Shown here one piece after another: positions 8,255 to 31,066 of a stretch of 50,496 bases of DNA. How positions within the stretch are numbered: position 1 is the stretch's first letter; each line of letters begins with the position of its first letter. Under the pieces are notes generated by a model. The model worked only from the letters and a program-made list of their open reading frames with translations, made no database searches and was not told the DNA's origin. A program made the translations under genes and the position numbers. The DNA is from a virus, in the IMG/VR virus record IMGVR_UViG_3300034069_000710, positions 1-50,496 of that record; one strand, 5' to 3'.

Positions 8255-8295
8255 CGTGTCGCCTCCTATGTTGACGAGGAAGCCATACGCGGGCA

Positions 8296-8311: not shown

Positions 8312-8336
8312 CTTTATTTTGCGAGCCCCCGCCACC

Positions 8337-9977
8337 GTGAAAATTCAGCCTCGCCCCGACCAATGGCAATTCATTTCCGAGATTAACCAGGCGTGGAACC
8401 AGGGCGCCAAGCACGTTGTAGGCGTGGCGAGCACGGGGTTTGGCAAAACCGTGTGCCTATCGCAATTGGTCGAGGATAACCGCGGCGCGGCGTGCGTGGT
8501 GGCGCACCGGCAGGAGCTAGTCGGGCAAATTTCCATGATGCTCGCGCGGTACGGAGTGCGGCACAATATCATCGCTGCGCAGGCCACCGTGCGAGCCATT
8601 GCCGCCGAGCACGTGCGAGAATTCGGGCAATGCTATTACACGCCCTCGAGCCTTGTCGGCGTGGCCTCGGTCGATACGCTCGTGCGCGCCGAGGTCGATG
8701 CGGCGTGGCTGGCGCAGGTCACGCTCGTTATTACCGACGAGGGCCACCACGTCGTCATCGGCAACAAATGGCACGCCGCGCTGCAGCGCTTCCCGAACGC
8801 GCGCGGGCTGCTACCGACCGCCACCCCGTCGCGCGCCGATGGCAAGGGACTAGGCACGCCCGAGCTAGGGGGGTCGGGAATTGCCGATGCGATGGTGCTC
8901 GGTCCGCCTATGCGGTGGCTGATCGACAACGGATTTTTGACGCCATACCGCGTAATTTGCGTGGAAAGCGACCTAAAGCTGCTCGAGTCACAGGTATCGG
9001 CGTCGGGCGATTATTCCCCGCAAACGCTCAAGGATGCGGCCAAAAAATCCCGCATCGTAGGCGACGTGGTGCGCGAGTATCTGCGGTGGGCGCGCGGGCT
9101 GCGCCATATCACCTTTTCGACCGACACCGACACGGCCGCCGCCATGACCACCGCCTACCGGGCCGCGGGCGTGCGCGCCGAGTGCCTTACCGGCAAAACG
9201 CACGACCACCTGCGCCGCGACATTATCAAGCGGTTCGAGCGCGGCGACCTAGAGGAAATCGTGGCCGTCGATATCATTAGCGAAGGGTTCGACCTGCCGG
9301 CAATCGAGGCCGTGAGTTTCGCCCGGCCGTCTATGTCGCTCGGCGTTGTCTGGCAGCAATTCGGCCGCGCGCTGCGCACCTTCGAAGGCAAGACACAAGC
9401 GCTGATTATCGACCACGTGGGGAACGTCATCAATCCCGCCATCGGCCTGCCCGACCGGCCGCGGGTGTGGAGCCTGGCGAACCGCGATAGCCGGAAGAAA
9501 AAGGAAAACGACGCCATCCCGATGCGCGTTTGCGTCGAGTGTTACGAGCCATACGAGCGGACCTATCGGGAATGCCCGCACTGTGGCCACTACCCCGAGC
9601 CCGCCAGCCGCGCCGCCCCGCAATCGGTCGACGGCGACCTGGCTGAAATGTCGCCCGAGCTACTGGCGAAGCTGCGCGGCGACCTCGATCAAGCAGCGTA
9701 CACGCTCGACGAGGAACGCGCCCGGCTCGTAGCTTCACGCGCGCCGCACGTGGCGGTTATGGCGGGGGTAAAGCATCACGCTGAACGGCTCGACACGCTC
9801 GCGCAGCTTCGCCAGACAATGGCCGATTGGGGCGGTCGCCGGTTCGCGCGCGGCGATACCGATAGCATGATGCAACGCGAGTTTTTCCTGCGGTTCGGCG
9901 TCGACGTGATAACCGCGCAGGCATTGAAGCGCGCGGAGGCGCAAGCGCTACTTGACCGTATCGTCAACTCTGTTTAA
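8337..9977 (+). CDS. Superfamily 2 DEAD/DEAH-box DNA helicase with C-terminal zinc ribbon
   Basis: Walker A ASTGFGKT, DEAH-like ITDEGHH, C-terminal CVECYEP...CPHCGH. Start taken as GTG 8337, downstream of the palindrome. ATG 8268 or GTG 8256 are alternatives. Confidence 0.8.
   Translation: MKIQPRPDQWQFISEINQAWNQGAKHVVGVASTGFGKTVCLSQLVEDNRGAACVVAHRQELVGQISMMLARYGVRHNIIAAQATVRAIAAEHVREFGQCYYTPSSLVGVASVDTLVRAEVDAAWLAQVTLVITDEGHHVVIGNKWHAALQRFPNARGLLPTATPSRADGKGLGTPELGGSGIADAMVLGPPMRWLIDNGFLTPYRVICVESDLKLLESQVSASGDYSPQTLKDAAKKSRIVGDVVREYLRWARGLRHITFSTDTDTAAAMTTAYRAAGVRAECLTGKTHDHLRRDIIKRFERGDLEEIVAVDIISEGFDLPAIEAVSFARPSMSLGVVWQQFGRALRTFEGKTQALIIDHVGNVINPAIGLPDRPRVWSLANRDSRKKKENDAIPMRVCVECYEPYERTYRECPHCGHYPEPASRAAPQSVDGDLAEMSPELLAKLRGDLDQAAYTLDEERARLVASRAPHVAVMAGVKHHAERLDTLAQLRQTMADWGGRRFARGDTDSMMQREFFLRFGVDVITAQALKRAEAQALLDRIVNSV
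9952..9967 (+). promoter_or_regulatory. TTGACCGTATCGTCAA motif with TAATCA 17 nt after the TTGACC hexamer; putative promoter/operator
   Basis: Seen directly at the 3' end of the helicase gene, upstream of ATG 10004. Confidence 0.55.
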
Positions 9978-10003
9978 TCATTGCTGGATTGGGAGTTTAT
10001 CGA

Positions 10004-10174
10004 ATGGAAAAAGGCTTTTATTGGGTACGTAACCGCGCCTGCGGGATTCTTACCATAGCCTGCTGCAGCGGACACTATTGGTTCATTCTCAACGGGCTTA
10101 CGGGGGGTTGGACGGAAGCCGAGGTGCGCGAGGATTATGAAATTCTCGACCGTATTTCCGAGCCGCGCTCGTGA
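10004..10174 (+). CDS. Hypothetical small protein (56 aa)
   Basis: ATG preceded by GGGAG. Its stop overlaps the GTG of the next gene (GTGA). Confidence 0.5.
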   Translation: MEKGFYWVRNRACGILTIACCSGHYWFILNGLTGGWTEAEVREDYEILDRISEPRS

Positions 10175-10656
10175 GACTCCCCATTGACCTGCGCACGTGG
10201 GCGCTTCGCCACAATGTCACGCCCGCCGCGCTTGGCGAGCTAGCCGAAATTCTCGGTGCCGGATCGCAACCGGAAGGCGAGGAAGGCGCAAGCGAAGGCC
10301 GCGTGCAGAGCCGGGTCCGCCTGGCCGCACCGTTCCACGGGATGAAGCTATGGCGGAACAATGTCGGCGCGCTGCTCGACAAGCGCGATATTCCCGTTCG
10401 GTTCGGCCTCGCGAATGATACCCCGGCCTTGAACAAAAAGCTCAAGTCGGGCGACCTTATCGGCTGGCGCAGCGTGGAAATCACGGGTGCCATGGTCGGC
10501 TCGGTAATCGCGCAATTCGTGTCGTTCGAATGCAAGCATGCGGGGTGGCATTACACCGGCGACGAGCACGAGCAGGCGCAACAGCGGTGGGCCGCGCTCG
10601 TTGAACTGGCAGGCGGCCACGCCCGGTTCGTCACCGACCCCGAGGGAATGGCATGA
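10171..10656 (+). CDS. VRR-NUC domain nuclease (PD-(D/E)XK fold)
   Basis: RNNVGA...SGDLIGW...FECK...EHEQAQQRWAALVELAGG matches my memory of the VRR-NUC pattern. Helicase plus VRR-NUC pairing is typical. Confidence 0.7.
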   Translation: MRLPIDLRTWALRHNVTPAALGELAEILGAGSQPEGEEGASEGRVQSRVRLAAPFHGMKLWRNNVGALLDKRDIPVRFGLANDTPALNKKLKSGDLIGWRSVEITGAMVGSVIAQFVSFECKHAGWHYTGDEHEQAQQRWAALVELAGGHARFVTDPEGMA

Positions 10657-11765
10657 CCTGGCAGCTTCTCCACGCCGATTGCCGCGTGGTAATGTCCAAC
10701 ATGGGCGACGAGACAATCGACGCCGTGGTTTGCGACCCGCCGTATCACCTCACGAGCATAGTCAAGCGGTTTGGCCCCGGCTCGGCACCGCAGCAATTCG
10801 GCACCGATGGCGCCTTCGCGCGCGCCGCCCGGGGCTTCATGGGGCAGACGTGGGACGGCGGCGATATAGCATTCGACCCGACGCTATGGGCCGAGGTGCT
10901 GCGCGTGCTCAAACCGGGCGGCCACCTCGTCGCCTTCAGCGGCACGCGGACATACCACCGCATGGCCTGCGCGATTGAGGATGCCGGTTTCGAAATTCGC
11001 GATATGCTCGAATGGCTTTACGGGTCGGGCTTTCCCAAGGGCGGGCTAGACGACGAGGGCCGCGGCAGCGCGCTAAAGCCGGCGCACGAGCCAATGTGTC
11101 TGGCGCGAAAATCGTTCAAGGGAAGCGCCGCGGGGTGCGTTGAGGCGCACGGTACCGGGCTGCTCAATATTGACGCTTGCCGCGTACCTAGCGACGAAGT
11201 TACCGGGTGGGGCGGGGCTCGAGGAGGAAGCGACGACGCTACACAATCGAAAGGCCGCAACTACCGTTTAGGAGAGGGAGAAGCGAGGCCCGTTCTCGGA
11301 CGTTTCCCCGCGAATGTCTGCCACGACGGGTCGCTTGAGGTGGTCGCGCAATTTCCGGCCGAAGCTAAGGGCGGGGCATACCCCGCGCAGCGAGGGGCAA
11401 ATGCCGTCTACGGCGCCTCTAGCGGGGGTAGCGATTTTGTAGGGTCGATGGGCGATAGCGGCAGCGCGGCGCGTTTCTTCTACTGCGCTAAGGCAAGCCG
11501 GCGTGACCGTAACGAGGGCGTCGGCGAGCTAGCCGGCAACATTCATCCGACCGTCAAACCAACCGACCTGATGCGTTGGCTCGTGCGTCTCGTTTGCCCG
11601 CCCGGCGGCGTCGTGTTCGACCCGTTCGCGGGGTCGGGCAGTACGGGCAAGGCTGCGTTGCTCGAGGGGCGGCGGTTCATCGGCGTCGAGATGACTGCGG
11701 AATATATCCCCATAGCTCGGGCGCGTATCGAATACGCAGCGCGGTTGACGGCGGGGTCAAACTAA
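10653..11765 (+). CDS. DNA methyltransferase, beta-class (N6-adenine or N4-cytosine)
   Basis: Motif IV VVCDPPY near the N-terminus and motif I FDPFAGSGSTG near the C-terminus give the beta-class order. HPTVKP motif. Confidence 0.85.
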   Translation: MTWQLLHADCRVVMSNMGDETIDAVVCDPPYHLTSIVKRFGPGSAPQQFGTDGAFARAARGFMGQTWDGGDIAFDPTLWAEVLRVLKPGGHLVAFSGTRTYHRMACAIEDAGFEIRDMLEWLYGSGFPKGGLDDEGRGSALKPAHEPMCLARKSFKGSAAGCVEAHGTGLLNIDACRVPSDEVTGWGGARGGSDDATQSKGRNYRLGEGEARPVLGRFPANVCHDGSLEVVAQFPAEAKGGAYPAQRGANAVYGASSGGSDFVGSMGDSGSAARFFYCAKASRRDRNEGVGELAGNIHPTVKPTDLMRWLVRLVCPPGGVVFDPFAGSGSTGKAALLEGRRFIGVEMTAEYIPIARARIEYAARLTAGSN

Positions 11766-11773
11766 GGATATGC

Positions 11774-12082
11774 GTGCAAATTATGAGCGAGAAAGTCACC
11801 AACCGCAACCGAGCCGTGCTCGACGCTGCCCTGCGCCTTGCGGCGTTGCGCGGCTATCGCAACATTACCCGGCAGCAGGTGGCCGACGAGGCGCAGGTGG
11901 CCGTCGGATCGGTGAACAATGCGTTCGGGACGATGGACGGATTGCGCGACGCCGTGATGGCCGCGGCGGTTGCCGGGGAGCGGTACGAGATTATTGCGCA
12001 GGGGCTCGCCGACCGGCACCCGGCAACCACCAATCTGCCCCCGAGCGTGCGGCAGCAGGCTTTCGCATCGCTGGCGGCGTAA
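11774..12082 (+). CDS. Small TetR-like helix-turn-helix DNA-binding protein
   Basis: AALRLAALRGYRNITRQQVADEAQVAVGSVNNAFGT resembles the TetR_N HTH. GTG 11774 lies 5 nt after AAGGA; ATG 11783 is the alternative start. Confidence 0.5.
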   Translation: MQIMSEKVTNRNRAVLDAALRLAALRGYRNITRQQVADEAQVAVGSVNNAFGTMDGLRDAVMAAAVAGERYEIIAQGLADRHPATTNLPPSVRQQAFASLAA

Positions 12083-12147
12083 GCCGTCTCGCTCACCGTC
12101 GGATTAGGAGCTTGCGGGCCGGATGGCCTAGCGCGAGGGGATAACAC

Positions 12148-14571
12148 GTGCTCGAATTGCCTGCCCCGCTCGCGCCTCTTGCCGCTTTCCCGCAATTCGT
12201 AACGTACCGCCTCGTGCCGAGCATTAAGCCCGGCAAGATGGACAAGCTTCCCTGCGATTGGCGCGACGGCCGGGTGGTATCCGCGCACCTCTCCGCGAAC
12301 CGCACCACCTTTGCCAATGCTGCCGCCGCGGTCGCCGCCGGGCGCGGCCAGGGCGTCGGGTTCGTGTTCACCGCCGACGACCCGTTTTGGTTCCTCGATA
12401 TCGACGGCGCGCTGCAGGCCGATAACACGTGGTCGCCGATGGCGGCCGAGTTATGCGCCGCGCTGCCTGGCGCCGCGGTGGAGATATCGCAAAGCGGCAC
12501 CGGCCTGCATATTTTTGGCACGGGCGCGGTACCTGAGCATGGGTGTAAGAATATCCCGCTCGGCCTCGAATTCTACCACGAGGGGCGCTTTGCCGCGCTC
12601 ACCGGGCAGGGCGCCGTCGGCGACGTGATGACCGATTGCACGGCGCTCCTGCCCGGGCTCGTGTCGCAATATTTCCCGATGGGCGCCGCCACCACCGCCG
12701 GCCCCGAGGAATGGACAAGCGAGCCGGTGCCCGAGTGGGACGGCCCGACCGACGACGACGACTTGATACGGCGCGCGCTCGGCTCGGCCGACCGTTCCGC
12801 CGCGGTCGCGTTCGGTGGCGAGGGCGTGACTTTCCGCGATCTATGGGAAGCCAATCCCGACGCGCTCGGCAAACGCTGGCCAGATACCGGGCAAAAGGGC
12901 GGGCCTTACGACGCTTCGAGCGCCGACGGTGCGCTAGCCGCGCATTTGGCATTCTGGACCGGCAAAAATTGCGAGCGCATCCGCGATCTTATGTACCGCT
13001 CGGCGCTGCTGCGTGACAAATGGGAGGCCCGGGGCGACTATTACCTGCCGCGCACCATCCTGCGCGCTGCCGGGTTGTCAACCGAGGTTGCCAAGGGATC
13101 AAGCAAGCCGCTTCCCGAGCCGGTCACGGTTGAGGCTGCGCAGGCCGCCAACGTGACCTTGCGCACCTCGGGGGAATTCCTCGGCGTCGACGGGCAGCTT
13201 ACTTATTTCGCCGGCTGCGTGTACGTCCAAGCTGACGACCGCGTTTACGTGCCCGACGGCGGCCTGCTCAACAGATCGCGGTTCGATGCGACGTACGGCG
13301 GCTACCAATTTGTCATCGATCCCCAAGGCCAAAAGATGACGACGAGCGCGTGGGAAGTGTTCACGCAAAACCGGGTCTATGCCGCCCCGTGGTGTCATGC
13401 GCTATGCTTCCGCCCCGAACAGCCGAGCGGCGCTCTTATCGCCGAGGAGGGGCGAACGCTGCTCAATACTTACGTTCCCATCACAACCCGCCGGGTTAAG
13501 GGTGACGCGAGCCGCTTTACGGGCTTCCTCGCCAAAATTCTGCCCGAGGAGCGCGACCGGCAAATTCTACTGTCGTACATGGCGTCAATGCTGCGCAACC
13601 CCGGGTTTAAATTCCAGTGGTGGCCGGTGCTGCAGGGCGCCGAGGGCAATGGTAAATCGCTTCTGCTGCGCGTGCTGTCGCATTGCGTGGGGCAGCGCTA
13701 TACGCACCTCGTCGACGTGCACAAGATGGCCAAGCAAGGCACCGGCTTTAACGGCTGGATTCAAGGCAACTTATTCCTTGGTATCGAGGAAATATACGTT
13801 GCCGAGCGCCGCGACTTTCTCGAAGCGTTCAAAGCATATGTTACGAACGACCGGCTGCCGCTCGAGAAAAAGGGGGTCGACGCATTTACCGGAGACAACC
13901 GAGTTAATGGTTTGATGCTTACTAACCACCGCGACGGCGTACCGATTAGCATTGACGGCCGCCGGTATGCCGTATTCTTCACGGCGCAGCAAACGGCCGA
14001 GGACGTGACCGCTGCCGGCATGGGGGGCACTTACTTTCCCGACCTGTACGATTGGCTCAAAGGGCGCAAAGCATATGCGCACCTCGGCGCTGACTATGGG
14101 TATGCGGTCGTCAACGATTATTTGCGCGAGTATGCCATTGCGGAGGAATTCGACCCGGCCGGTATCTGCATGCGCGCACCCGAGACGAGCAGCACGAGCG
14201 CCGCGCTTGTCGCCAGCCGCGGCCGTGCCGAGCAGGAAATTGTCGAGGCTATCGAATCGGCGCGGCCTGGTTTTGCCAACGGATGGATTTCCAGCAAGGC
14301 GCTTGACGACTTGCTAGAGCGCATTCGCGCCAACGTCCCGCGCACCAAGCGCCGCGCGCTGCTGCAGGGCCTCGGGTACGACTACCACCCGCATTTGCAC
14401 GAAGGCCGAACGAATGTGGTCGTGCAGCCCGACAACGGAAAGCCGCGGCTCTACGTCAAACGCGGCCACCTCGTTACGCAGCTTGCGAACGCGGCCGAGA
14501 TCGCCAAGCGCTACACCCGCGACCAGGCGTCCGCGTCGGGTATGGACGCCGAGGCCGCTTTTGGTAGTTGA
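12148..14571 (+). CDS. Bifunctional primase-polymerase (AEP) fused to an SF3/D5-type helicase
   Basis: AEP motifs FLDIDG (DxD) and SQSGTGLHIFG (sGxGxH). Walker A GAEGNGKS further downstream. 807 aa. Confidence 0.8.
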   Translation: MLELPAPLAPLAAFPQFVTYRLVPSIKPGKMDKLPCDWRDGRVVSAHLSANRTTFANAAAAVAAGRGQGVGFVFTADDPFWFLDIDGALQADNTWSPMAAELCAALPGAAVEISQSGTGLHIFGTGAVPEHGCKNIPLGLEFYHEGRFAALTGQGAVGDVMTDCTALLPGLVSQYFPMGAATTAGPEEWTSEPVPEWDGPTDDDDLIRRALGSADRSAAVAFGGEGVTFRDLWEANPDALGKRWPDTGQKGGPYDASSADGALAAHLAFWTGKNCERIRDLMYRSALLRDKWEARGDYYLPRTILRAAGLSTEVAKGSSKPLPEPVTVEAAQAANVTLRTSGEFLGVDGQLTYFAGCVYVQADDRVYVPDGGLLNRSRFDATYGGYQFVIDPQGQKMTTSAWEVFTQNRVYAAPWCHALCFRPEQPSGALIAEEGRTLLNTYVPITTRRVKGDASRFTGFLAKILPEERDRQILLSYMASMLRNPGFKFQWWPVLQGAEGNGKSLLLRVLSHCVGQRYTHLVDVHKMAKQGTGFNGWIQGNLFLGIEEIYVAERRDFLEAFKAYVTNDRLPLEKKGVDAFTGDNRVNGLMLTNHRDGVPISIDGRRYAVFFTAQQTAEDVTAAGMGGTYFPDLYDWLKGRKAYAHLGADYGYAVVNDYLREYAIAEEFDPAGICMRAPETSSTSAALVASRGRAEQEIVEAIESARPGFANGWISSKALDDLLERIRANVPRTKRRALLQGLGYDYHPHLHEGRTNVVVQPDNGKPRLYVKRGHLVTQLANAAEIAKRYTRDQASASGMDAEAAFGS

Positions 14572-18681: not shown

Positions 18682-19059
18682 ATGCTTGTGGAAACATGCC
18701 CGTCGTACTCAATTACGATATTCGTTGCCGGCGATCCCGACGAGGCACGCGCGGCCTGTGCTGCGTTCTGCGACCACGTGGGCTTCTGCGTGACCGTGAC
18801 GCCGACACACTATGCCTATACGAACGGCGGCGAGGATGGCGTGGCGGTTGGCCTCATCAATTACCCCCGGTTCCCGCTCGACCCCGAGGATTTGCTGCAG
18901 GCGGCCGAGTCGCTGGCGTGGCACCTTGTGGGCGTGCTCGAGCAGCGCTCGTGCGCTATACAGACGCCGACGGAAACGTACCGATACCACGATTTTTTCG
19001 GGCTCGAGGGTATCGGCAACTTTTACGCTAGCAAATGGCAACACGGGAAACGAGTATGA
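18682..19059 (+). CDS. Hypothetical protein (125 aa), translationally coupled to the PAPS-reductase-like gene
   Basis: ATG at 18682. Its stop overlaps ATG 19056 (ATGA). Confidence 0.6.
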   Translation: MLVETCPSYSITIFVAGDPDEARAACAAFCDHVGFCVTVTPTHYAYTNGGEDGVAVGLINYPRFPLDPEDLLQAAESLAWHLVGVLEQRSCAIQTPTETYRYHDFFGLEGIGNFYASKWQHGKRV

Positions 19060-19832
19060 CGCATCAACTAATCGAGCGCGACGCCGACGGGGTGGCGCAT
19101 GTTGTCGGAATGTCGGGAGGTCACGACTCGTCGATTATGTCGGTCGAGTTGCTTGCCCGTACCAATATTCGACCGTTTAATTACGTCTGTACTCCGACCG
19201 GTGACGAGTTGCCCGAAATGTTTGCGCATTGGCGCACGATGGGAGAGTTGTTGGGCCGTCGCATCTTGCCGATTATGGCGAAAACCTTGCGGCAGGTAAT
19301 TGACGACGAAGGGACGCTGCCAAATTTCCGCATGCGGTTTTGTACGCGCATTATCAAAATTCTACCCTACCGCGATTTCCTTATCAGACTCGCCGCCGAG
19401 GGTCCGGTGGTTTCTTATATTGGCCTGCGCGCCGACGAGCCGGGCCGCGCTGGCGGCGCGTACGAAGATATTCCCGGGGTGACGATGCGCTTCCCGTTGC
19501 GAGAATGGGGATGGGGCGAGGACGAAGTGCAGGCGGGCCTCGCCGCTCGCGGCATCCGCTGCCCGGTGCGGACGGACTGCGCGCGCTGCTACCACCAGCG
19601 TATTGGCGAATGGTTCCTGCTATGGCTCGATAATCGCGACCTCTACCTAGACGCGGAAGCTGACGAAAAGCGCACCGGGTACACTTTCCGCACGCCAGGA
19701 CGAGACAGTTGGCCGACCGCATTATGCGACCTGCGCGCCGAATTCGAGCGCGGGAAACTGCCGACCGTAAGCCTTAACCGGATGGCGCGAGAGGCCATGC
19801 GCTCGGGATCGTGCCGGGTGTGTTCGCTATGA
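19056..19832 (+). CDS. PAPS reductase / PP-loop ATP-pyrophosphatase family protein
   Basis: PP-loop VGMSGGHDSS (SGGxDS). FCTRIIKILPYRDFL resembles the PAPS_reduct core. Cysteines CPVRTDCARC and a terminal CRVC. Confidence 0.7.
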   Translation: MTHQLIERDADGVAHVVGMSGGHDSSIMSVELLARTNIRPFNYVCTPTGDELPEMFAHWRTMGELLGRRILPIMAKTLRQVIDDEGTLPNFRMRFCTRIIKILPYRDFLIRLAAEGPVVSYIGLRADEPGRAGGAYEDIPGVTMRFPLREWGWGEDEVQAGLAARGIRCPVRTDCARCYHQRIGEWFLLWLDNRDLYLDAEADEKRTGYTFRTPGRDSWPTALCDLRAEFERGKLPTVSLNRMAREAMRSGSCRVCSL

Positions 19833-19996
19833 AACCTTACGCTCCCGACAATAACCGCGGGCGCAATGACGCCGGGCACCGGGTGCACCACCGCACCGCC
19901 GATAATTCGAAAGCTTGCGCCCGTGCTTTTGCCAAGTCGTTGCGGCACGCAGCACGGCAGGAAGCTCGGCGACTGATCGAAAATAACGCCGAATGA
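19829..19996 (+). CDS. Small basic hypothetical protein (55 aa)
   Basis: ATGA coupling at 19829. Confidence 0.45.
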   Translation: MKPYAPDNNRGRNDAGHRVHHRTADNSKACARAFAKSLRHAARQEARRLIENNAE

Positions 19997-20018
19997 CCCG
20001 CCCCGCGGTGCATTTCGT

Positions 20019-20147
20019 ATGGTTCCGCAGCGCATATGGGGGCCGCCCGACTTCGTGCACCACGGATGGGATCGACGCGCCGCACGAGAGATTGCGCCGG
20101 CCGATCGCTCTTACGCGGACCTCCCGGGCGTGAAGCTGCCCGAGTAG
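20019..20147 (+). CDS. Possible small ORF (42 aa)
   Basis: ATG-initiated, high GC3 frame (MVPQRIWGPPDFVHHGWDRR...). No clear RBS. Confidence 0.25.
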   Translation: MVPQRIWGPPDFVHHGWDRRAAREIAPADRSYADLPGVKLPE

Positions 20148-20148
20148 A

Positions 20149-20319
20149 TTAGGCCGCCTGCCGCAAGGCTAAGGCGTGCTCGTATTCCATTCGCTGCCGC
20201 AGATCAGCCCGCCGCTTCTGGTCGGGAAGGCTGCCGCGCGCCTCCCAATGCAGGTGGTCGAGGCGGTCGGCGCAATGCTGGCAATGGTCGCCGTCGAAAT
20301 ATGCGCGCTCTGCGTACAT
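20149..20319 (-). CDS. Small hypothetical protein (56 aa), isolated leftward gene abutting the iteron region
   Basis: ATG 20319 preceded by AGGAAA. The rest of track ORF 20149..20559 is read-through of non-coding repeat DNA. Confidence 0.5.
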   Translation of the reverse strand: MYAERAYFDGDHCQHCADRLDHLHWEARGSLPDQKRRADLRQRMEYEHALALRQAA

Positions 20320-20322
20320 GGA

Positions 20323-20397
20323 AATTTTCCTGAGATTTGCGTAATTTTTAAAATTTAGCCGAAATTTGCTAATTTTGTGTAAATTCGCAGCGAAAAT
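20323..20397. other. AT-rich block of A/T tracts (AAATTTT, AATTTTT, AAAATTT, AAATTT, AATTTT, AAATT, AAAATT) recurring roughly every 10 bp; likely intrinsically bent DNA
   Basis: Seen directly. It stands out in an otherwise GC-rich genome. Confidence 0.6.
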
Positions 20398-20703
20398 TCC
20401 CCCGTACCCAAAAAATCCCCCGTAGTTCCCCCGTATAAACCCCGTAGGTACGGGGGCGTAAAATTTGGCAGTTTTCTGCGGGTTACAGCGGTCCCCCGTA
20501 TCGATTCCCCCGAATTCCCCCGTACCCGTAGTTTTCTCTGCGCCTGCGTGCGTGTGCATGCGCGCGCGTATGTAGCAATGTGCAAAAACACCCCTAGTAC
20601 GGGGGAATTCCTATATTATCGTTATATTTCAAAGGGTTATTATCCCCCATAGGTACGGGGAAATACCGGGGTTTATACGGGGGATTTCGTCGGGTACGGG
20701 GGA
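20398..20703. repeat. Iteron array. TCCCCCGTA (extended AA[A/T]TCCCCCGTA) is direct at 20398, 20416, 20427, 20492 and 20516 (variant at 20506). It is inverted as TACGGGGGA at 20598, 20676 and 20695. Palindromic units CCCC(G/A)TAGGTACGGGG lie at 20440 and 20644.
   Basis: Each copy was read and indexed directly from the sequence. Function (origin, packaging site or operator array) is unknown. Confidence 0.9.
20545..20574. other. 30-nt perfect alternating pyrimidine-purine tract (tgcgtgcgtgtgcatgcgcgcgcgtatgta), Z-DNA-prone, at the centre of the iteron array
   Basis: Checked base by base: 15 consecutive Py-Pu steps. Confidence 0.85.
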
Positions 20704-20727
20704 TTTACGATTTGGGCTTGTCGGGGC

Positions 20728-20743
20728 GTGACTAAAGCGTCAT
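20728..20743 (+). promoter_or_regulatory. Degenerate member of the palindrome family (GTGACTAAAGCGTCAT), 13 nt upstream of the terS ATG
   Basis: Seen directly. The core TGAC-N6-GTCA is conserved but the outer bases differ. Confidence 0.35.
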
Positions 20744-20755
20744 TTACGAGGGGTC

Positions 20756-21607
20756 ATGAACGCTCTTGTCGAACAGCAATCTTCGCAGCAATTGAAGGGT
20801 GCCGCTCGTCCGTTGTGGACCGAGGGGCTTACCGACAAGATGGTGGCGTTCGTCGAGCACTACGTCTCGTACCGCAACGCGACGCAGGCGTACGACTTCG
20901 CTTATGACGCCCGGGAGGGCTCGTACGAGACGCGCAGGCGCAACGGGCACGTCATGCTCCACGACCCCCGCGTGCAAGCCGCTGTGAAGGCCCGCGCAGC
21001 CATCGCCACGCACGAAACGGGAATGGGGGTGGCTTGGCTGCTCGAACGCTTCCTGCGCATCGCTAACGCCGATCCCCGGGAGCTTATCGGGCTCAAGGTC
21101 GGTTGCTGCCGCCGGTGCTACGGCGAGGGCCACGAATTCCAGTGGCGCCAGCATGAATATCTCGAGGAAATGAAAAAGGCCGACCTGGCAAACGAGCAGC
21201 GCAAGGCGCTCGGCTGGAAAGGCGCGATACAGCCCGAGGTGCCTTACCCCGACATTGCCGGCGGGTTCGGCTTCAACGCCACGCTTCCGCCGCTCGAGGA
21301 TTGCCCGCATTGCCACGGCGAGGGTGTCGAGCGGTTCGTGCCCCGCGATACCGACAAGCTATCCGACGACGCCTTGCTGCTCTACGGCGGCGTGAAGGTC
21401 AAAAAGGATGGATACGAAATCATCATCGCCGACCAGTCCAAGGCCGCCGAGCTAGCCGGCCGGATCATGGGCGCGTTTAACGACAAGCTGCAGGTCTCGG
21501 GAACAATCGGGGCCATGGTGGCGGTCGGCGACCTGCGCAAGATCGACCCCAACGAGGCGGCCAAGGCTTACCGGGATATGATCGCTCGTGAGATGCCGGC
21601 GAAATAG
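20756..21607 (+). CDS. terS: Terminase small subunit (Terminase_2-like) with an inserted pair of CxxCxGxG motifs
   Basis: LTDKMVAFVEHYVSYRNATQAY and C-terminal DQSKAAELAGRIMGAFNDK match my memory of Terminase_2. CRRCYGEG and CPHCHGEG lie in between. Confidence 0.75.
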   Translation: MNALVEQQSSQQLKGAARPLWTEGLTDKMVAFVEHYVSYRNATQAYDFAYDAREGSYETRRRNGHVMLHDPRVQAAVKARAAIATHETGMGVAWLLERFLRIANADPRELIGLKVGCCRRCYGEGHEFQWRQHEYLEEMKKADLANEQRKALGWKGAIQPEVPYPDIAGGFGFNATLPPLEDCPHCHGEGVERFVPRDTDKLSDDALLLYGGVKVKKDGYEIIIADQSKAAELAGRIMGAFNDKLQVSGTIGAMVAVGDLRKIDPNEAAKAYRDMIAREMPAK

Positions 21608-21771: not shown

Positions 21772-22103
21772 CCTCGGCGACCATGCGGCTTATCGAGGCC
21801 GTCGAACGGCTGGAAATGACCGGTGTAATCGGCGACGGCAGGGTGGCGCAGCTTCACGACCTGGCCGCCGCGGCGCGGATCGAGGTCACGCCGGACGTGC
21901 CCGACGATTGGGCGGCCATGGGAAAATTCCCGGGCATTCTGCCGCTTATCGAAGTGACCGGCCGCTACACCTGGGCGGAGCGAGTCCTGCGGTATGCCCG
22001 AAACGCGCACGATTGCTCGACGTTCGGCGGCCGGTCACGCATAAGCGACGCGCAGCGGGAATTGAGTAAGGCTCGGGCCGAATACCAAGCGTTGCTCGGG
22101 TGA
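21768..22103 (+). CDS. Hypothetical protein (111 aa)
   Basis: ATGA-coupled start inside track ORF 21726..22103. Confidence 0.55.
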   Translation: MTSATMRLIEAVERLEMTGVIGDGRVAQLHDLAAAARIEVTPDVPDDWAAMGKFPGILPLIEVTGRYTWAERVLRYARNAHDCSTFGGRSRISDAQRELSKARAEYQALLG

Positions 22104-22651
22104 AGCCCGCCCGCACCCCGCGCGAGCGTTCGGGCATGGTGCTTTGCCCCCGTGACCACCTCGGCCGGTTGAAGCCTATGGACGCGCTCGCCCGGTTTGC
22201 TGCCAAATGCGAATTCGACGCGACCACCGGCTGCGTATTGTGGCGGGGCGGCACCACGCAGGGCCGCGGTAACTCGGCGGTCTATGGCAGCTTTTGGGAC
22301 GAAGGGCGGCGGTGGTTCGCGCATCGGTGGGCCGGGGTCAAAATTCACGGGCTCGACCTCACGGCGGCGCAGGCGGGCCATTGCTGCCCCGGTCGGCCGA
22401 ATACCCTATGCGTCCAGCATATCGAACCGCAGACGAACGCCGAGAACCAGGCCGAGCGCAACGCGCGATTGCACCAGACGCCGAGCGAGCGCCAGTATTG
22501 GCTTTTCGTGTCGCTTGGGATCGAGCCGGCGCCCGGGGTGGCCGTGGAGCCCGTCGAGCCCGACTCCCTGCCCTTTTTCACCCCGCCCGATTGGCTGCGG
22601 CCTTTCCTAGTTGACGCCACCGTCAACTCTGCTACGGATGCACCATTCTAG
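22100..22651 (+). CDS. HNH endonuclease
   Basis: TGCVLWRGG...FAHRWAG...GHCCPGRPNTLCVQHIEPQTNAEN fits the phage HNH pattern. GTGA-coupled start at 22100; ATG 22178 is the alternative. Confidence 0.7.
   Translation: MKPARTPRERSGMVLCPRDHLGRLKPMDALARFAAKCEFDATTGCVLWRGGTTQGRGNSAVYGSFWDEGRRWFAHRWAGVKIHGLDLTAAQAGHCCPGRPNTLCVQHIEPQTNAENQAERNARLHQTPSERQYWLFVSLGIEPAPGVAVEPVEPDSLPFFTPPDWLRPFLVDATVNSATDAPF
22611..22626 (+). promoter_or_regulatory. TTGACGCCACCGTCAA motif with TACGGA 16 nt after TTGACG; putative promoter/operator
   Basis: Seen directly inside the 3' end of the HNH gene, followed by TAGGAGG and ATG 22661. Confidence 0.55.
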
Positions 22652-25342: not shown

Positions 25343-25542
25343 TGACCGGCTACACACGCGAGCAGCAGGAAAGGCTCGACGAGTTGGCCGCTCGAAAGCG
25401 GGAGATTGACTTGCGGGCGGATATCCTCGCTACCGCCGTCAAGCAACGGATGCGGGAAACGGGCGAACCGGTGCGCGAGGATTACCCGAGCCGCGGTGCC
25501 TATCGAGCGGCCCATTCGCTATGGCGGAAGCGGCACCCGTGA
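25342..25542 (+). CDS. Hypothetical protein (66 aa, coiled-coil-like)
   Basis: TAATG coupling at 25342. Confidence 0.5.
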   Translation: MTGYTREQQERLDELAARKREIDLRADILATAVKQRMRETGEPVREDYPSRGAYRAAHSLWRKRHP

Positions 25543-25547
25543 TTTCC

Positions 25548-25832
25548 ATGACCGTCCCGCAATATCGCCGTCGGGAAGTGACGATAAATGGCCATTGCGT
25601 CACGATGGCGGGCAAGCGCCACGAGCTACTTGCGGCATTGCTCGTCAATCGCGGCCAATGGCTTACCTACGACCAAATTATAGAAATCATGTGGCCCGAC
25701 CCGGATAATCAGCCGCTAACGGCGCTCGGTTGCATCGATCAGGCGTTATTGCGTCTGCGTCGGGTGCTCGGGGTGGACGCTATCGAATGCCGGTGGGGCC
25801 TCGGGCTAAGGATGCCAATATGCGACAAGTAA
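25548..25832 (+). CDS. Stand-alone OmpR/PhoB-type winged-helix DNA-binding protein (no receiver domain)
   Basis: VTINGHCVTMAGKRHELLAALLVNRGQWLTYDQIIEIMWPD...IDQALLRLRRVLG...IECRWGLGLRM follows the Trans_reg_C pattern. Confidence 0.6.
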   Translation: MTVPQYRRREVTINGHCVTMAGKRHELLAALLVNRGQWLTYDQIIEIMWPDPDNQPLTALGCIDQALLRLRRVLGVDAIECRWGLGLRMPICDK

Positions 25833-26578: not shown

Positions 26579-26995
26579 ATGACCGCGTGCATTACCCTTT
26601 GGCAGCCGTATGCCTCGCTGATTTTCAGCGGGCACAAGGTGTTCGAGACGCGCGGCTTCCGCTATCCGTCGAAATTAGGGGGGCAGCGGCTCGCCATTCA
26701 CGCGGCCAAGCGACCGCTGGCGCAATGCGGCGTATCGACCGGGCTCGACCAACTTTGCCGAGAGGTGTTCGGGCCTGATTACGCGGCTACCTTGCCGCGG
26801 GGTGCGCTGCTCGGGTCCGGTCTATTGGCCGGGTGCTTCTCGACCGATGATTTGCGGCCATTCATTAATCGCGAGGATGATTTGACCGGAGATTTCCGGC
26901 CCGGCCGGTTTGCGTGGCTGCTAGAGGATATCCAAGCACTCGCCGAGCCGCGACCGATGAATGGCAAGCAAGGATGGTCGACCGTTGACCTTTGA
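26579..26995 (+). CDS. ASCH (PUA-like) domain protein
   Basis: CITLWQPYASLIFSGHKVFETRGF...RLAIHAAK fits the ASCH N-terminal pattern. Confidence 0.6.
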   Translation: MTACITLWQPYASLIFSGHKVFETRGFRYPSKLGGQRLAIHAAKRPLAQCGVSTGLDQLCREVFGPDYAATLPRGALLGSGLLAGCFSTDDLRPFINREDDLTGDFRPGRFAWLLEDIQALAEPRPMNGKQGWSTVDL

Positions 26996-28640
26996 TTTCC
27001 GCAATCCTGACTACCGCGAGGTTTTCGCGCAGCGAGCCGAGCGCCTGCAATGGCTGCGTGACGATCCGACCGGGCAACGCCTCACCAATGTGCGGGCGTT
27101 CTATGCGACCGACGAGGGCATTGCGCATTTTATCAACGACTGGGGGATGACGTTCGACCCGCGCAACGCCGACGTGGGCCTGCCGACGGTCATCCCGCTT
27201 ATTCTGTTCCCCAAGCAATGGGAGTTCATCGCGTGGAGCCTCGACCTATGGCGCCGGCGTGAACCTGGCGCAGCCGAGAAGTCGCGCGATTTTGGCCTAT
27301 CGTGGCTGGCGGTCGCCATGTCGGCGTCGCTTTGCTTGTTCCGCGAAGGGCTACAAATCGGGTTCGGGTCGCGCAAAGAGGAATACGTAGACTCGACCAA
27401 AAGCCCGAAAGCGTTGTTCTGGAAAGGCCGACAATTCCTGCAGTTGCTGCCGCCCGAATTCCGCAACGGGTGGACGCTGAAAGACGCCGCGCATATGCGG
27501 ATCGACTTTCCGGCGACGGGCTCGGTTATGACCGGCGAGGCGGGTGACAACATCGGCCGCGGCGACCGCGCTAGTATCTATTGGACAGACGAGGATGCGC
27601 ACCTAGAACGACCGCAGCTTATCGAGGCGTCGCTATCGCAGACGACGAATTGCCGCATCCGCATTTCGACCCCCAAGGGCCGCGCCAATCCTTTCGCGAT
27701 CAAGCGCCACGACCCGGAATGGATCGCGCGCGGGCGGATATTCACGGCGCATTGGCGTGACGACCCGCGCAAGGATGACGAATGGTACGAGCGGCAGCAG
27801 CGCGACCTCGATTCGATCACGCTCGCGCAGGAGGTCGACCTATCGTACGACGCCTCGGCCGTTGGCATCGTTATTCCGCAGGCTTGGGTGCAATCGTGTA
27901 TCGACCTGCATAAAAAGCTTGGGTTCGAGGTCCGCGGCGCGCGCGTGGGCGCTTATGATCCAGCCGACGAGGGCGACGCGTGCGCCTTTGCGGACGCCAC
28001 GGGCATCCTCGTAAATTCCGTCACCTCGTGGTCGGGAAAGGGGTCTGACACGCTCGCGAGCACGCAAAAAGTATTCGCCCTTTGCGACGTGCTCGGTATC
28101 GACGAATTCGACTACGATTCCGACGGGCTCGGCGCGGGCGTGCGCGGAGATGCGCGCAGCATCAACGAGGGCCGCAAGCGCAAGATTGAGGCGCGCGCCT
28201 ATCGCGGGTCGGGGGCCGTTGCCAATCCCGACAAGCCGATACCGGACGCCGCACCGCGTAACGAGAAGAAACTGCCGGGCGAAATCGTGCGGTTGAATGC
28301 CGATTATTTCGAGAATGCCAAGGCGCAGGCCTGGTTCGAGGCGCGCGCCCGTTTCCAGCGCGGGCACCGGGCGTTGCAAATGCACCTGCGTGGCGAGGAA
28401 TGGCGCGACGCCTATCCGCCCGACGACCTGATTTCGCTGAATAGTGCCATGCCTGAGCTAGGCGCGCTGTGCCCGCAGCTATCGCAGGCGACGTTCACGC
28501 AATCCAAGTCGGGCAAAATGATGATCGACAAGACGCCCGACGGCGGCCAATCGCCGAACCACGCGGATAGCGTTGTCATCCGCTACGCTCCCGCGCGCAA
28601 AAAGGGCCGGGCGTACAAATGGGACGCTTGGAAAAGCTAG
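26961..28640 (+). CDS. terL: Terminase large subunit
   Basis: FPKQWEFI, AEKSRDFGLSW (ATPase loop region) and IYWTDEDAH (Walker B-like). 559 aa, directly upstream of the portal region. Confidence 0.85.
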   Translation: MASKDGRPLTFDFRNPDYREVFAQRAERLQWLRDDPTGQRLTNVRAFYATDEGIAHFINDWGMTFDPRNADVGLPTVIPLILFPKQWEFIAWSLDLWRRREPGAAEKSRDFGLSWLAVAMSASLCLFREGLQIGFGSRKEEYVDSTKSPKALFWKGRQFLQLLPPEFRNGWTLKDAAHMRIDFPATGSVMTGEAGDNIGRGDRASIYWTDEDAHLERPQLIEASLSQTTNCRIRISTPKGRANPFAIKRHDPEWIARGRIFTAHWRDDPRKDDEWYERQQRDLDSITLAQEVDLSYDASAVGIVIPQAWVQSCIDLHKKLGFEVRGARVGAYDPADEGDACAFADATGILVNSVTSWSGKGSDTLASTQKVFALCDVLGIDEFDYDSDGLGAGVRGDARSINEGRKRKIEARAYRGSGAVANPDKPIPDAAPRNEKKLPGEIVRLNADYFENAKAQAWFEARARFQRGHRALQMHLRGEEWRDAYPPDDLISLNSAMPELGALCPQLSQATFTQSKSGKMMIDKTPDGGQSPNHADSVVIRYAPARKKGRAYKWDAWKS

Positions 28641-29101: not shown

Positions 29102-31066
29102 ATGAGACTGCAACATATCAAGGATGGCTTGGCCAACCTCTATAGTCGCCTCGGCACCGGGGCCGACCGCAACACGCAGTCGATTTATTCGGTCCCGATG
29201 ATCCCGCAGCAGCAAATTGAGGCGGCTTATCGTTCGTCGTGGCTGGCTCGCAAGGTTCACGACCTGCCCCCGTTTGAGATGACGCGCGAGGGGCGCCGGT
29301 GGGGCGCTACCAAGGAACAAATCGAAGCGCTCGAGGCGTACGAGACCCGCGTGGGTCTATGGCCGAAGTTGTGCGAGGCGATCACGGTGGCCCGGCTGCA
29401 TGGCGGCGGCGCCATAATCGCGGGCGTGCGCGCCGGTGGCTCGGCAGACCCGACAAAGCCGCTGGACGTCACCCGCGTCGGCAAGGACGGCCTGCGCTAC
29501 TTATTCGTCGTGAGCAAAAGCCAACTCTCCGCGCCTAACGGCATGGAACAGGACCCGGAAAGCGATTTTTACCGCCAGCCGGCAATGTATCAAATCGAGG
29601 GCCGGGGCGGCGGCAATATTCAAATTCACCCGTCGCGCGTGTTCCCGTTCAAGGGCAAGCCGCTGCCGCCCGGCATGCTCACAATGTCGGCGTGGGATCA
29701 ATTTTGGGGAGATCCGCTCCTAGTCTCGATCAAGTCGGCAATTGATAACGCTGAGACGTCGCAGGCAGCGGTCGCGACTATCCTGCACGAAATGAAGCAG
29801 GATGTTATCACGATCCCCGGACTTACCGAGCAGATTGGAACCGAGGAAAGCGAGAACCTTATTGCCGCCCGCGTCGAGGCGGTGGCGCGCTTTAAGTCGA
29901 TGTTCAACGCGTTGCTGCTCGATGGCGGCGACGATGAAGGCAACGGCAAAGAGGAATGGGAGACGCGGCAGCTATCGTTCGCGCAACATCCCGAATTGCT
30001 GCGCGCATTCCTCGGCGTGGTCGCCGGCGCCGCCGATATTCCCGTGACCCGGCTTATGGGCGAAAGCCCGGGGGGCATGAATTCGACCGGCAAGGGCGAA
30101 CAGGACGATTTCGACCGGATGATTGGCGCGCAGCAGGGGTTCGAAATCCGTCCCAACCTGCAACGCCTCGACGAAATTCTAATTCGCGCAGCGCTCGGCA
30201 CCCGGCCGCCCGAAATTGTTTGGAAGTTTTCGGCGCTGCGTCCGGTCGACGAGTCCCAAGCCGCCGAGATCGAAAACAAGGAGGCCGATAGCGTCACCAA
30301 AATCGCCTCGTCGGCGCTCGTACCCTCGGTCGCGCTCGCAAAGGCCGTGCAAAACCGCATGGTCGAAAGCGGTCGGTGGCCGGGGCTCGACAAGGCGCTC
30401 GAGGAAGCCGAGGCCGCGGGTAAGCTGCCCCCCAAGGTGGCGGGAGAGGAAGACAACGGCGCCGAGCCCAAGCCCGAGCCGGTACTGCCCGCCGCGAACG
30501 ACAACACGCTGCAGCAAAAGGCCGAGGCGCTGCAAAAGCGGGGCACCGTCACGCGGGACCAGGCAATTGCGCTTATTGCCGACGCTGCGCCGCGCCCCCT
30601 CTACGTGCGGCGTAATCTCACCAACGGCGCCGAGTTCATCGCGTGGGCCAAGGCGCAGGGATTCGAAACCACGCTGCCGGCCGATGACCTGCACGTGACT
30701 ATCGCCTATAGCCGCCAGCCGGTCGACTGGATCAAGGCGGGGTCGGATTCTTGGGGCGGCGACGACGACGGCAATCTGCGCATCGTGCCTGGCGGCGCGC
30801 GACTCGTAGAACCGCTCGGCGACAAGGGGGCTATCGTGCTCCTGTTCGCCTCGTCGCGCCTCACGTGGCGGCACGAGGATATCAAGCGCGAGGCGGGCGC
30901 ATCGAACGATTACGACGAATATCAACCGCACGTCACCATCACGTACAAAAAGCCGGAAGGGCTCGACCTGCGCAACGTGGAGCCGTACCGCGGCGCGCTC
31001 GAATTCGGGCCGGAGATTTTCGAGGAGATTACGGATAATTGGTCGGGTGATGTAACGGAGGAATGA
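29102..31066 (+). CDS. Portal protein (DUF1073-type) fused to a C-terminal 2H-phosphoesterase domain
   Basis: N-terminal DGLANLYSRLGTGADRN...YRSSWLARKVHDLPPFEMTREG fits DUF1073 portals. The last 157 aa carry LHVTIAY and PHVTITY (two HxTx motifs). Confidence 0.85.
   Translation: MRLQHIKDGLANLYSRLGTGADRNTQSIYSVPMIPQQQIEAAYRSSWLARKVHDLPPFEMTREGRRWGATKEQIEALEAYETRVGLWPKLCEAITVARLHGGGAIIAGVRAGGSADPTKPLDVTRVGKDGLRYLFVVSKSQLSAPNGMEQDPESDFYRQPAMYQIEGRGGGNIQIHPSRVFPFKGKPLPPGMLTMSAWDQFWGDPLLVSIKSAIDNAETSQAAVATILHEMKQDVITIPGLTEQIGTEESENLIAARVEAVARFKSMFNALLLDGGDDEGNGKEEWETRQLSFAQHPELLRAFLGVVAGAADIPVTRLMGESPGGMNSTGKGEQDDFDRMIGAQQGFEIRPNLQRLDEILIRAALGTRPPEIVWKFSALRPVDESQAAEIENKEADSVTKIASSALVPSVALAKAVQNRMVESGRWPGLDKALEEAEAAGKLPPKVAGEEDNGAEPKPEPVLPAANDNTLQQKAEALQKRGTVTRDQAIALIADAAPRPLYVRRNLTNGAEFIAWAKAQGFETTLPADDLHVTIAYSRQPVDWIKAGSDSWGGDDDGNLRIVPGGARLVEPLGDKGAIVLLFASSRLTWRHEDIKREAGASNDYDEYQPHVTITYKKPEGLDLRNVEPYRGALEFGPEIFEEITDNWSGDVTEE

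Follow-up and report, generated by a model that had tools for sequence, protein, structure and literature searches.

What does a phage need a dense set of short repeats for, directly in front of the gene for its small terminase subunit? The question is raised by positions 20320-20755 of the IMG/VR virus record IMGVR_UViG_3300034069_000710, which was analysed over its whole length of 50,496 nucleotides (referred to here as the window) and in which this stretch, the hub, lies immediately upstream of terS. An initial annotation had singled out the hub as the only long non-coding stretch with such an organization and had read it either as a replication origin or as a packaging site of the cohesive-end (cos) or pac kind. 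The first point held, as the hub is the top outlier of the window for both repeats and A+T content. Between the readings, comparison with related phages favors packaging of the pac type, and an origin and a cos site are kept as lesser rivals. We hold with moderate confidence that the hub is a packaging initiation region, an SPP1-like pac site for headful packaging that is fused with the terS promoter. A terminase recognition region beside terS is an already known kind of element; in the cultured phage records and the literature on Z-DNA and terminases, we found no description of a family-wide syntax with lineage-specific half-sites, paired sites resembling those of integration host factor (IHF), a structure-prone center and an apparently leaderless terS.

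Half-site arrays upstream of terS

The hub is built from one short half-site. The exact sequence TCCCCCGTA occurs eight times in the whole 50-kb genome and all eight copies lie inside 20398-20703 (305 bp), five of them on the + strand (20398, 20416, 20427, 20492, and 20516) and three on the - strand (20598, 20676, and 20695). When up to one mismatch is allowed, 12 of the 22 matches in the window fall in the hub, and none of 100 shuffles reaches 22 (mean 10.8); with one-mismatch and C4 variants counted, the hub holds about 14 half-sites. Its 8-mer repeat score of 60 is the maximum of the window (mean 8.6, standard deviation 6.0), the most AT-rich 60-nt windows of the genome fall within it, and no other iteron-like cluster was found across the genome. 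The three inverted copies had been placed correctly in the initial annotation. Of the six direct copies listed there, five are exact and the one at 20506, TCCCCCGAA, carries one mismatch, and the AA(A/T)T prefix ascribed to the motif is present in only three of the six. GC skew does not switch at the hub, apart from a local effect due to the orientation of the motifs, and by eye there is no GATC in 20320-20755.

The half-sites are ordered in arrays on both sides of a center (Table 1). The left outer array has the order ">>> <", which is also seen in relatives, and ends in a palindromic unit at 20440 that had been described correctly; the second such unit, in the right outer array, starts at 20645 and not at 20644 as first given. 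Next to the center, the segment 20512-20525 (GAATTCCCCCGTAC) is a perfect inverted repeat of 20597-20610. The A/T tracts that flank the arrays on the left, over 77 bp, were said to recur roughly every 10 bp, and the period of ~10 bp is confirmed, with equal spectral power in 4 of 2000 shuffles; these tracts are predicted to form intrinsically bent DNA, and they probably also hold the promoter of the leftward 56-aa gene that abuts the hub. The AT-rich block at 20606-20642 (37 bp) is 78% A+T. It had been taken for an unwinding element, but fits an IHF-type bend site better.

Relatives were collected by TerS searches of viral and metagenome contigs, by a protein search (301 homologues, all metagenomic), and by contig look-ups, and their loci are designated here by L numbers. 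Conservation of the layout in related phages, on which the initial annotation had expected its proposal to stand or fall, was found: the window and over 25 metagenomic relatives, with TerS identities from 84% down to ~38%, have it just before terS, the half-site sequence changing by lineage. From left to right the shared order is phased A/T tracts, an outer array (typically three direct half-sites and one inverted half-site closing a palindromic unit), an A/T-rich IHF-like segment, two or three inner half-sites directed toward the center, a center of 60-80 bp, inner half-sites pointing back, a second IHF-like site, a second outer array, a promoter-like motif, and terS. The description of the arrays as mirrored holds only approximately: the inner repeats converge on the center, but the two outer arrays have the same orientation in several relatives.

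The half-site itself varies between lineages. In the clade of the window it is TCCCCC(G/A)TA (TCCCCCGTA/ATA), with C4 variants in L003 and L228, and elsewhere it is CTCCCAAC (L025 and L229), CATAGGA (L262), CCGGGCA (L253), or CCCCGTAT (L237); in L022 the half-site is a 16-bp palindrome, GCCAGTACGTACTGGC. The IHF-like element recurs at the same positions. The sequence WATCAANNNNTTR is found with at most one mismatch at the left spacer position in L005, L009, L011, L012, L024, and L025, and the right-hand sites of relatives are perfect or have one mismatch, e.g. AATCAAAGGGTTA in L003 and AATCAATGGTTTA in L009. Over 23 loci there are 32 IHF-like matches, threefold the 10.9 ± 3.6 of composition-matched block shuffles, and 21 of these 23 loci have at least one match against a shuffle mean of 8.1. 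The assignment to IHF is by consensus match and the sites are putative; in the window, the right-hand one (20627-20639) is good and the left-hand one is degenerate. If the packaging reading is correct, this syntax would make pac sites predictable by rule in hundreds of genomes of uncultured soil phages.

What stays constant beside the hub is the terminase. The left-hand gene differs from locus to locus, the distance from primase to hub ranges from 0.8 to 6.8 kb in relatives (in the window, the primase-helicase ends 5.7 kb upstream), and only terS and, farther downstream, terL, which encodes the large terminase subunit, accompany the hub in every case. That the hub is fixed at terS while its left neighbor and the distance to primase vary is comparative evidence that points to packaging. 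Other candidate partners are not constant among relatives that keep the half-site. The 56-aa gene is present in only some of these and is absent from L007-L009 and L024, all of which retain the hub. The OmpR-type winged-helix protein, which the initial annotation had linked to the repeats, is not matched by any homologue in L001, L011, and L012, which carry the same half-site and whose terS-terL interval is covered in full, and this link is not supported.

Two further features of the relatives were recorded. A second repeated motif, of the TAAATTAGCG / GCGTTAATT type, is present in the A/T tracts of relatives (upstream flanks of L005, L009, L012, L025, L229, and L233), and these tracts keep the same position even in L007, in which the upstream gene extends into them with its 3' end; the motif may be a binding site for another protein. 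Eight of the 13 viral contigs found through TerS (IMG/VR; L011, L013, L014, L016, L017, L020, L021, and L023) begin 0.6-2.7 kb upstream of terS and extend up to 43 kb downstream, and these starts could be assembly breaks in the hypervariable region to the left of the hub or something physical.

TerS and the proposed start of packaging

The protein that we propose as the reader of the half-sites, TerS, belongs to the SPP1/SF6 G1P family. In its AlphaFold model, the N-terminal helices comprise residues 27-39, 42-50, 57-68, and 71-103 at a predicted local distance difference test score of ~95, and the best Foldseek matches are the SF6 small terminase (3zqq) and its DNA-binding domain (4zc3; template modeling score of 0.79 on the target, root mean square deviation of 2.1 Å), with weak E-values. 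Between the DNA-binding domain and the core, residues 117-186 contain four invariant cysteines, Cys-118, Cys-121, Cys-183, and Cys-186 (C118, C121, C183, C186; CCRxC...CPxC). This segment looks like a zinc-ribbon insert, the model being only moderately confident there, and SF6 G1P is without it.

The relation between hub and TerS is seen most directly in a pair of ~49-kb contigs, L253 and L262, whose DNA is 92-98% identical from mid-terS onward. In the terS segment for the DNA-binding domain the identity is 79-84%, and the hub and the DNA upstream of it cannot be aligned; 13 of the 19 amino acid differences between the two TerS proteins fall within residues 5-72, and the mosaic boundary lies just after the DNA-binding-domain part of the gene. 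Hub and TerS DNA-binding domain have therefore diverged jointly and appear to behave as one specificity module. The same pattern of joint change is known from the cosB/Nu1 specificity pairs of lambda and 21. Across the wider set, the motif RNATQAY in the presumptive recognition helix of TerS is common to C5-type loci, RNQTQAY and RNWTQAY occur in the two CTCCCAAC loci, and the motif is different in other lineages. A crisp half-site of 8-9 bp present about 14 times, together with natural specificity switches (C5, CTCCCAAC, CATAGGA, CCGGGCA, and GCCAGTAC) and the L253/L262 pair, makes sequence recognition by a TerS ring directly testable. How such rings read DNA is an open question (PMC9611059).

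The analysis establishes directly how the hub is built, that it is conserved and linked to terS, and that it has diverged jointly with the TerS DNA-binding domain, and from these findings we infer binding, bending, and cutting as follows. Oligomers of TerS would read, through their N-terminal helix-turn-helix domains, the ~14 CCCC(C)(G/A)TA half-sites that flank the 70-bp center. The arms, of ~105-130 bp each, would owe their pre-bending to the phased A/T tracts and, in the majority of relatives, to a mid-arm site of IHF type, so that the DNA could wrap around the TerS ring, and since the inner arrays face each other the complex would be roughly 2-fold symmetric around the center. TerL would make the first double-strand cut at the center, at a position dictated less by sequence than by how the complex is built, and packaging would proceed rightwards into terS and the structural genes.

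This scheme is modeled on SPP1, in which pac overlaps the terS promoters, TerS binds pacL and pacR around pacC, and pacL is intrinsically bent and wrapped; approximately two TerS oligomers bracket the cut, the TerL nuclease is non-specific and is placed by the complex, the cut is precise without a sequence requirement, and TerS represses its own operon (PMC6316719, PMC4737164, PMC4856287). The hub resembles the pac region of SPP1/SF6 in its TerS family (G1P, Terminase_2), in its location at the terS promoter region, in a central cut region (for the hub, a proposed one) flanked left and right by recognition arms (for the hub, putative ones), in a bent, A/T-tract-rich left arm (for the hub, bent in silico), and, as we propose for it, in a cut positioned by a complex of about two TerS oligomers (PMC6316719, PMC4737164, PMC4856287). 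It differs in several respects: SPP1 pacR runs into gene 1, whereas the hub is wholly upstream of the start codon; the arms of the hub are made of ~14 copies of one 8-9-bp half-site, whereas SPP1 pacL and pacR share no sequence; and the hub has two IHF-like sites and a Z-prone or dyad-symmetric center. The pac site of P1 has hexamer arrays on both sides of the cut and an IHF site, with Dam GATC in the repeats controlling site use, and lies inside pacA. P1 pac would share with the hub the clustering of short repeats in two arms that flank the cleavage site, and the help of a bending protein from the host; the hub differs in having no GATC and in its position, P1 pac being within pacA, and the terminases are unrelated.

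The large subunit is in keeping with a headful mechanism. The closest solved relative of TerL is the headful terminase Sf6 gp2 (E = 2e-19), and TerL is 50% identical to that of Bordetella phage IFTN9, which appears to be related to IFTN1-7, seven B. avium phages whose TerLs cluster with those of experimentally headful phages (PMC10269795). The TerL of Burkholderia phage Magia, related by its annotators to that of 9NA, is the best cultured match (54%). TerL would thus point to headful packaging, as judged from its sequence.

A number of observations weigh against a pac site. The isolated DNA-binding domain of SF6/SPP1 binds without sequence specificity (PMC4737164), so that strongly sequence-specific half-sites would depart from the archetype; selection of viral DNA by small terminases is still disputed, and the hub family would stand at the opposite extreme within the same TerS family. 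The match between helix and half-site is not one-to-one, as the helix variants RNVTQA, RNPTQA, RNAGQAY, and RNGVQAY retain C4/C5-type sites, and co-variation with TerS is not exclusive, because primase and its TetR-like neighbor are inherited with terS in the same genomes. Nor is the two-arm layout obligatory, given that in L011 (2270-2600) and L231 (820-1160), where a small extra gene lies between center and terS, the right arm is lost or replaced by a TAGGGGA/TCCCCTA pair. Independent assemblies of the phage are mutually circularly permuted. The remaining points concern replication: an iteron-type origin, if there is one, could only be the hub, as the genome has no other iteron-like cluster; in L015, the terS and primase operons diverge from either side of the hub, which is ~0.8 kb from the primase operon; in L022, two perfect convergent DnaA boxes (TTATCCACA, at 2575-2583 and 2700-2708) occupy inner positions flanking a Z-type center; and the AT-rich center of L262 is origin-like.

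These last points are the core of the case for a replication origin, in which the half-sites would be iterons for the primase-polymerase (prim-pol)/superfamily 3 (SF3)-type helicase (12148-14571), for the TetR-like protein (11783-12082), or, in some lineages, for host DnaA. It is proposed for such an origin that the convergent inner sites load two helicases head to head, that IHF bends the arms, and that the A/T-rich blocks or the center unwind. Iteron-type origins such as P1 oriR, pSC101, RK2 oriV, and the ori of Staphylococcus aureus pathogenicity islands (SaPI) have direct and inverted repeats, one or more IHF sites, AT-rich segments, and an adjacent promoter overlapped by inverted repeats. 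With its direct and inverted repeats, predicted bent DNA, AT-rich segments, IHF-like sites, and promoter overlap, the hub has this classic make-up and is the sole such cluster in the genome, L022 adding the DnaA boxes; AT-rich centers are found in L228 and L230 as well as L262, and primase and the TetR-like gene co-occur with hub-bearing terS lineages. However, the position of the hub is fixed to terS and not to primase, without linkage in cis to an initiator gene, and the adjacent, seemingly auto-regulated gene is terS. In most lineages the center is a GC-rich alternating purine/pyrimidine tract, the opposite of an unwinding element, and DnaA boxes (≤1 mismatch) are absent from the hub of the window, from 27 of 28 scanned relatives, and from 79 further TerS loci. 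The divergence between L253 and L262 reaches into the TerS DNA-binding domain, which an origin does not require. Finally, the replication module, with its Pol I-type polymerase, gp2.5-like single-stranded DNA-binding protein (SSB), exonuclease, and primase-helicase, resembles T7-type replisomes, which to our knowledge do not use iteron origins. We therefore regard an origin as unlikely, though as the most credible of the rival accounts; an origin linked to terS and built around a GC-rich, Z-prone core would be atypical.

The center of the hub

The perfect 30-nt alternating purine/pyrimidine run annotated at 20545-20574 is present and is the longest in the window, where the next-longest run is 15 nt. 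A cruciform was considered for this position and rejected: the single-strand fold of the center is no better than that of shuffles (z = -0.41), which leaves Z-DNA and not a cruciform as the likely alternative structure, and from its sequence the center of the window is likely to be Z-DNA-prone. In 13 of 23 loci (2-7 kb each), the best alternating 30-mer of the entire locus sits 186-487 bp upstream of terS, and further lineages have alternating runs of 26-30 nt. A core, CGCGTA(Y/A), follows the GC-rich alternating stretch in 11 loci, including lineages with other half-sites.

The Z-prone tract, around which the initial annotation had arranged the whole hub, is nevertheless not universal. Inverted repeats replace it in L003, L004, L014, L228, L230, and L232, for example as perfect arms of 17-18 bp with spacers of 25-28 nt or as a 48-bp palindrome, and L003 and L004, which carry a long inverted repeat at the center, are the closest relatives of the window (TerS 84%). 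Common to all lineages would be an approximate dyad symmetry about the center and a predicted proneness of the center to a supercoil-driven transition. On the packaging reading, we propose that the center is the site of the first terminase cut, the equivalent of pacC; by analogy, interchangeable centers would fit the sequence-independent cut of SPP1. The recurrence of a structure-prone center leads to a testable idea on the positioning of that cut.

One form of this idea is a torsion-coupled packaging switch, in which two TerS rings would wrap the IHF-bent arms and load twist on the 70-bp center, and the RuvC-like nuclease of TerL would cut distorted DNA rather than a sequence. The structural change would vary by lineage, being Z-DNA formation at alternating purine/pyrimidine tracts in most, cruciform extrusion in L003, L004, L014, and L232, and melting in L262, L228, and L230. 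A switch of this kind would account, throughout a phage family, for a pac cut that is precise yet needs no particular sequence; we consider it unlikely. In a weaker variant, one hub may serve as both origin and pac site.

The recurrent core also lends itself to a cos site, an account that we judge less probable than an origin. Here, the GC-rich tract would be a cosN-like nick site cut by TerL together with the HNH protein, and the arrays and IHF sites would take the roles of cosB and cosQ. The weight of this proposal comes mainly from the core, which is shared by lineages with differing half-sites, and from the conserved HNH gene, which lies 0.4-1.7 kb downstream of terS across the C5 clade (47-69% identity). 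A common cosN is likewise found in lambda-like phages of different cosB specificity, and HNH proteins are reportedly, from the work of Kala et al. in 2014, components of some cos packaging machines. The distant hub-bearing relatives, however, have no HNH gene, and in them terL directly follows terS. In lambda cos (cosQ-cosN-cosB, R3-I1-R2-R1), the repeats on the terminase gene side are interrupted by an IHF bend site, and bent DNA lies near the cut (PMC4856287); the hub would share these features through its IHF-like sites and its predicted bending. The families of both terminase subunits are different, since TerL is closest to the headful terminases Sf6 gp2 and the 9NA/IFTN group (PMC10269795) and TerS matches Terminase_2 only and is not of the lambda Nu1 type; unlike cosB, the hub has repeats on both sides of its center. 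Moreover, the center is not conserved among close relatives, and its replacement by unrelated inverted repeats in L003 and L004 is hard to square with a sequence-specific cosN.

The putative terS promoter and the genome around the hub

The hub runs into a promoter-like element. In 19 of 23 loci, 4-10 nt separate the end of a motif of the form TTGnnn-17/18-(C/T)Annnn from the first in-frame terS ATG, and a Shine-Dalgarno sequence before terS is lacking in most loci. With so short a distance from promoter-like motif to ATG, the terS mRNA would be leaderless or nearly so, and TerS may be translated from a leaderless message. A TGAC-N6-GTCA palindrome lies in the promoter spacer in the window, L004, and L006-L008. 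Consensus scans found no strict sigma-70 promoter and no intrinsic terminator in the region. A possible sigma-54 promoter at TGGCAG-N5-TGCG (~20466) was rejected because, by eye, its GG/GC spacing is one base short.

In the window, 15 bp separate the last half-site from the -35 element downstream of it, and occupancy by TerS would therefore also regulate transcription of terS. Taken further, this proximity suggests a purely transcriptional late-gene switch, in which a phage regulator (e.g. the TetR-like or the 56-aa protein) and IHF would control a weak terS promoter and a divergent leftward promoter, and packaging would start elsewhere. The promoter-like element itself, the half-site just upstream of its -35 hexamer, the palindrome in its spacer, and the resemblance of the 16-bp palindromic units to operators for dimeric helix-turn-helix proteins all fit such a switch. 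Yet some 14 sites over 300 bp, a two-arm syntax, and a structure-prone center go, in our judgment, far beyond the needs of known phage late promoters, and none of the candidate regulators accompanies the hub consistently, the TetR-like gene traveling with the position of primase. We consider this the least probable of the alternatives. Regulation does not exclude packaging, as the SPP1 region serves both (PMC4737164, PMC6316719).

The features of the hub and of the genome around it are collected in Table 1. The window begins and ends with the same 141 bases (1-141 and 50356-50496), so that the contig is a circular assembly of ~50,355 bp, with 63.7% G+C. The phage is present in the sequencing runs SRR23972086 and SRR23972087, and its host is probably a high-GC proteobacterium. 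The value of 141 is the largest default k-mer of MEGAHIT, and we take the match of the ends to be an assembly overlap and no terminal repeat. A Logan assembly of the same phage from another run has 50,348 bp and is opened at a different place; the contig ends were rejected as physical ends, two independent Logan assemblies of the phage opening elsewhere.

Table 1. Coordinates of the hub elements and of neighboring genes in the window
Feature	Position	Strand	Description
Endolysin	333-953		
Pol I-type polymerase	1862-4129		Leftward replication operon, with gp2.5-like SSB and exonuclease
Rightward block			Helicase, endonuclease, methyltransferase, small TetR-like gene, prim-pol/helicase
TetR_N helix-turn-helix gene	11783-12082		99 aa, unannotated; Pfam E = 1e-9; adjoins primase-helicase upstream
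Prim-pol/SF3-type helicase	12148-14571		Rightward
3'-Phosphoadenosine 5'-phosphosulfate (PAPS)-reductase-like open reading frame (ORF)	19035-19832		Among small genes left of hub
56-aa gene	20149..20319	-	MYAERAYFDGDHCQHC...; abuts hub
Phased AnTn tracts	20322..20398	.	AAATTTT, AATTTTT, AAAATTT, AAATTT, AATTTT, AAATT, AAAATT
Left outer array	20398..20457		Half-sites + at 20398, 20416, 20427, 20439; - at 20449
Palindromic unit	20440-20455		CCCCGTAGGTACGGGG; formed by half-sites 20439 and 20449
A/T-rich spacer	20459..20487	+	taaaatttggcagttttctgcgggttaca; at IHF-like position of relatives; 3 mismatches to WATCAANNNNTTR by eye
Left inner array	20492..20525	+	Half-sites 20492, 20506 (1 mismatch), 20516
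Center	20526..20596	.	30-nt perfect alternating purine/pyrimidine tract 20545-20574; core GCGCGCGCGTAT 20560-20571
Right inner half-site	20597..20610	-	GTACGGGGGAATTC; convergent with left inner array
AT-rich block	20606..20639	+	Ends in IHF-like TTTCAAAGGGTTA, 20627-20639; 1 mismatch to WATCAANNNNTTR
Right outer array	20643..20703		TCCCCCATA 20643 (+); TACGGGGA 20654, TACCGGGGT 20664, TACGGGGGA 20676 and 20695 (-)
Palindromic unit	20645-20660		CCCCATAGGTACGGGG; within right outer array
Promoter-like element	20718..20755	+	TTGTCG (20718-20723), 17-bp spacer, CATTTA (20741-20746), 9 nt, ATG
Palindrome	20729-20742		TGACTAAAGCGTCA; in promoter spacer
terS	20756..21607	+	Pfam Terminase_2 (PF03592) E = 7e-17; PHROG 51; proposed reader of half-sites
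HNH gene	22100-22651		PHROG families only, E = 1e-9
Winged-helix ORF	25521-25832		Trans_reg_C, 28.7 bits (cut-off 26.2)
terL	26961-28640		
Portal	29102-31066		Followed by structural genes

The automatic gene call on the left side of the hub, a 136-aa frame at 20149-20559(-), is an artifact: L005 and L012 have a stop codon 4-6 codons before the conserved ATG start of the 56-aa gene, which closes the longer frame and leaves the left half of the hub non-coding. The 56-aa gene itself is conserved. The N terminus of the 56-aa protein is conserved in L005 and L012, and by eye L011/L013 have the same conserved 5' end; the protein has no Pfam or PHROG match. An Rfam search of 19800-21000 gave no RNA family.

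The replication module (1862-7083 and 8256-14571) joins a T7-like set (Pol I-type polymerase, gp2.5-like SSB, and exonuclease) to a prim-pol of the NrS-1 type, itself fused to a helicase resembling D5/VapE. The TetR-like gene is kept immediately before the primase-helicase in at least 50 of 80 primase loci, and its product is a possible regulator or origin-binding partner of primase. To the right, the HNH gene is followed by ~4 kb of small ORFs, the gap between terS and terL amounting to ~5 kb of these. An ORF beside terL (26579-26995) was considered as a second TerS and rejected, being unrelated to the DUF2280-type TerS of phage Magia. No integrase was identified among the ORFs scanned, a set that is not exhaustive.

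In 50,697 cultured phage records, neither megablast nor blastn found a match to the hub and its surroundings, and a TerS scan of genome contigs gave no match. The best cultured matches to TerS are those of Pseudomonas phage Itty13 and Burkholderia phage BcepB1A (33-36%). In BcepB1A, terS and terL are likewise apart, with ~4.6 kb of small genes between them, and upstream of terS there is a weak version of the hub, with GTACCAG repeats and a perfect IHF consensus; the distant cultured TerS relatives Itty13 and DC1 have no comparable repeat hub upstream of terS. A motif scan of viral contigs with CCCCCGTA-N1-14-CCCCCGTA was too loose; among the matches listed, those beyond two known relatives are coding tandem repeats or unrelated elements. 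On an unrelated viral contig, L132, paired CCCCCGTAACCCCCGTAACCC units stand at 13630-13860 beside palindromes (gagaatcattctcatt) and TTATCCACAGGTTATCCACAG, and these repeats look like some other plasmid or phage control region.

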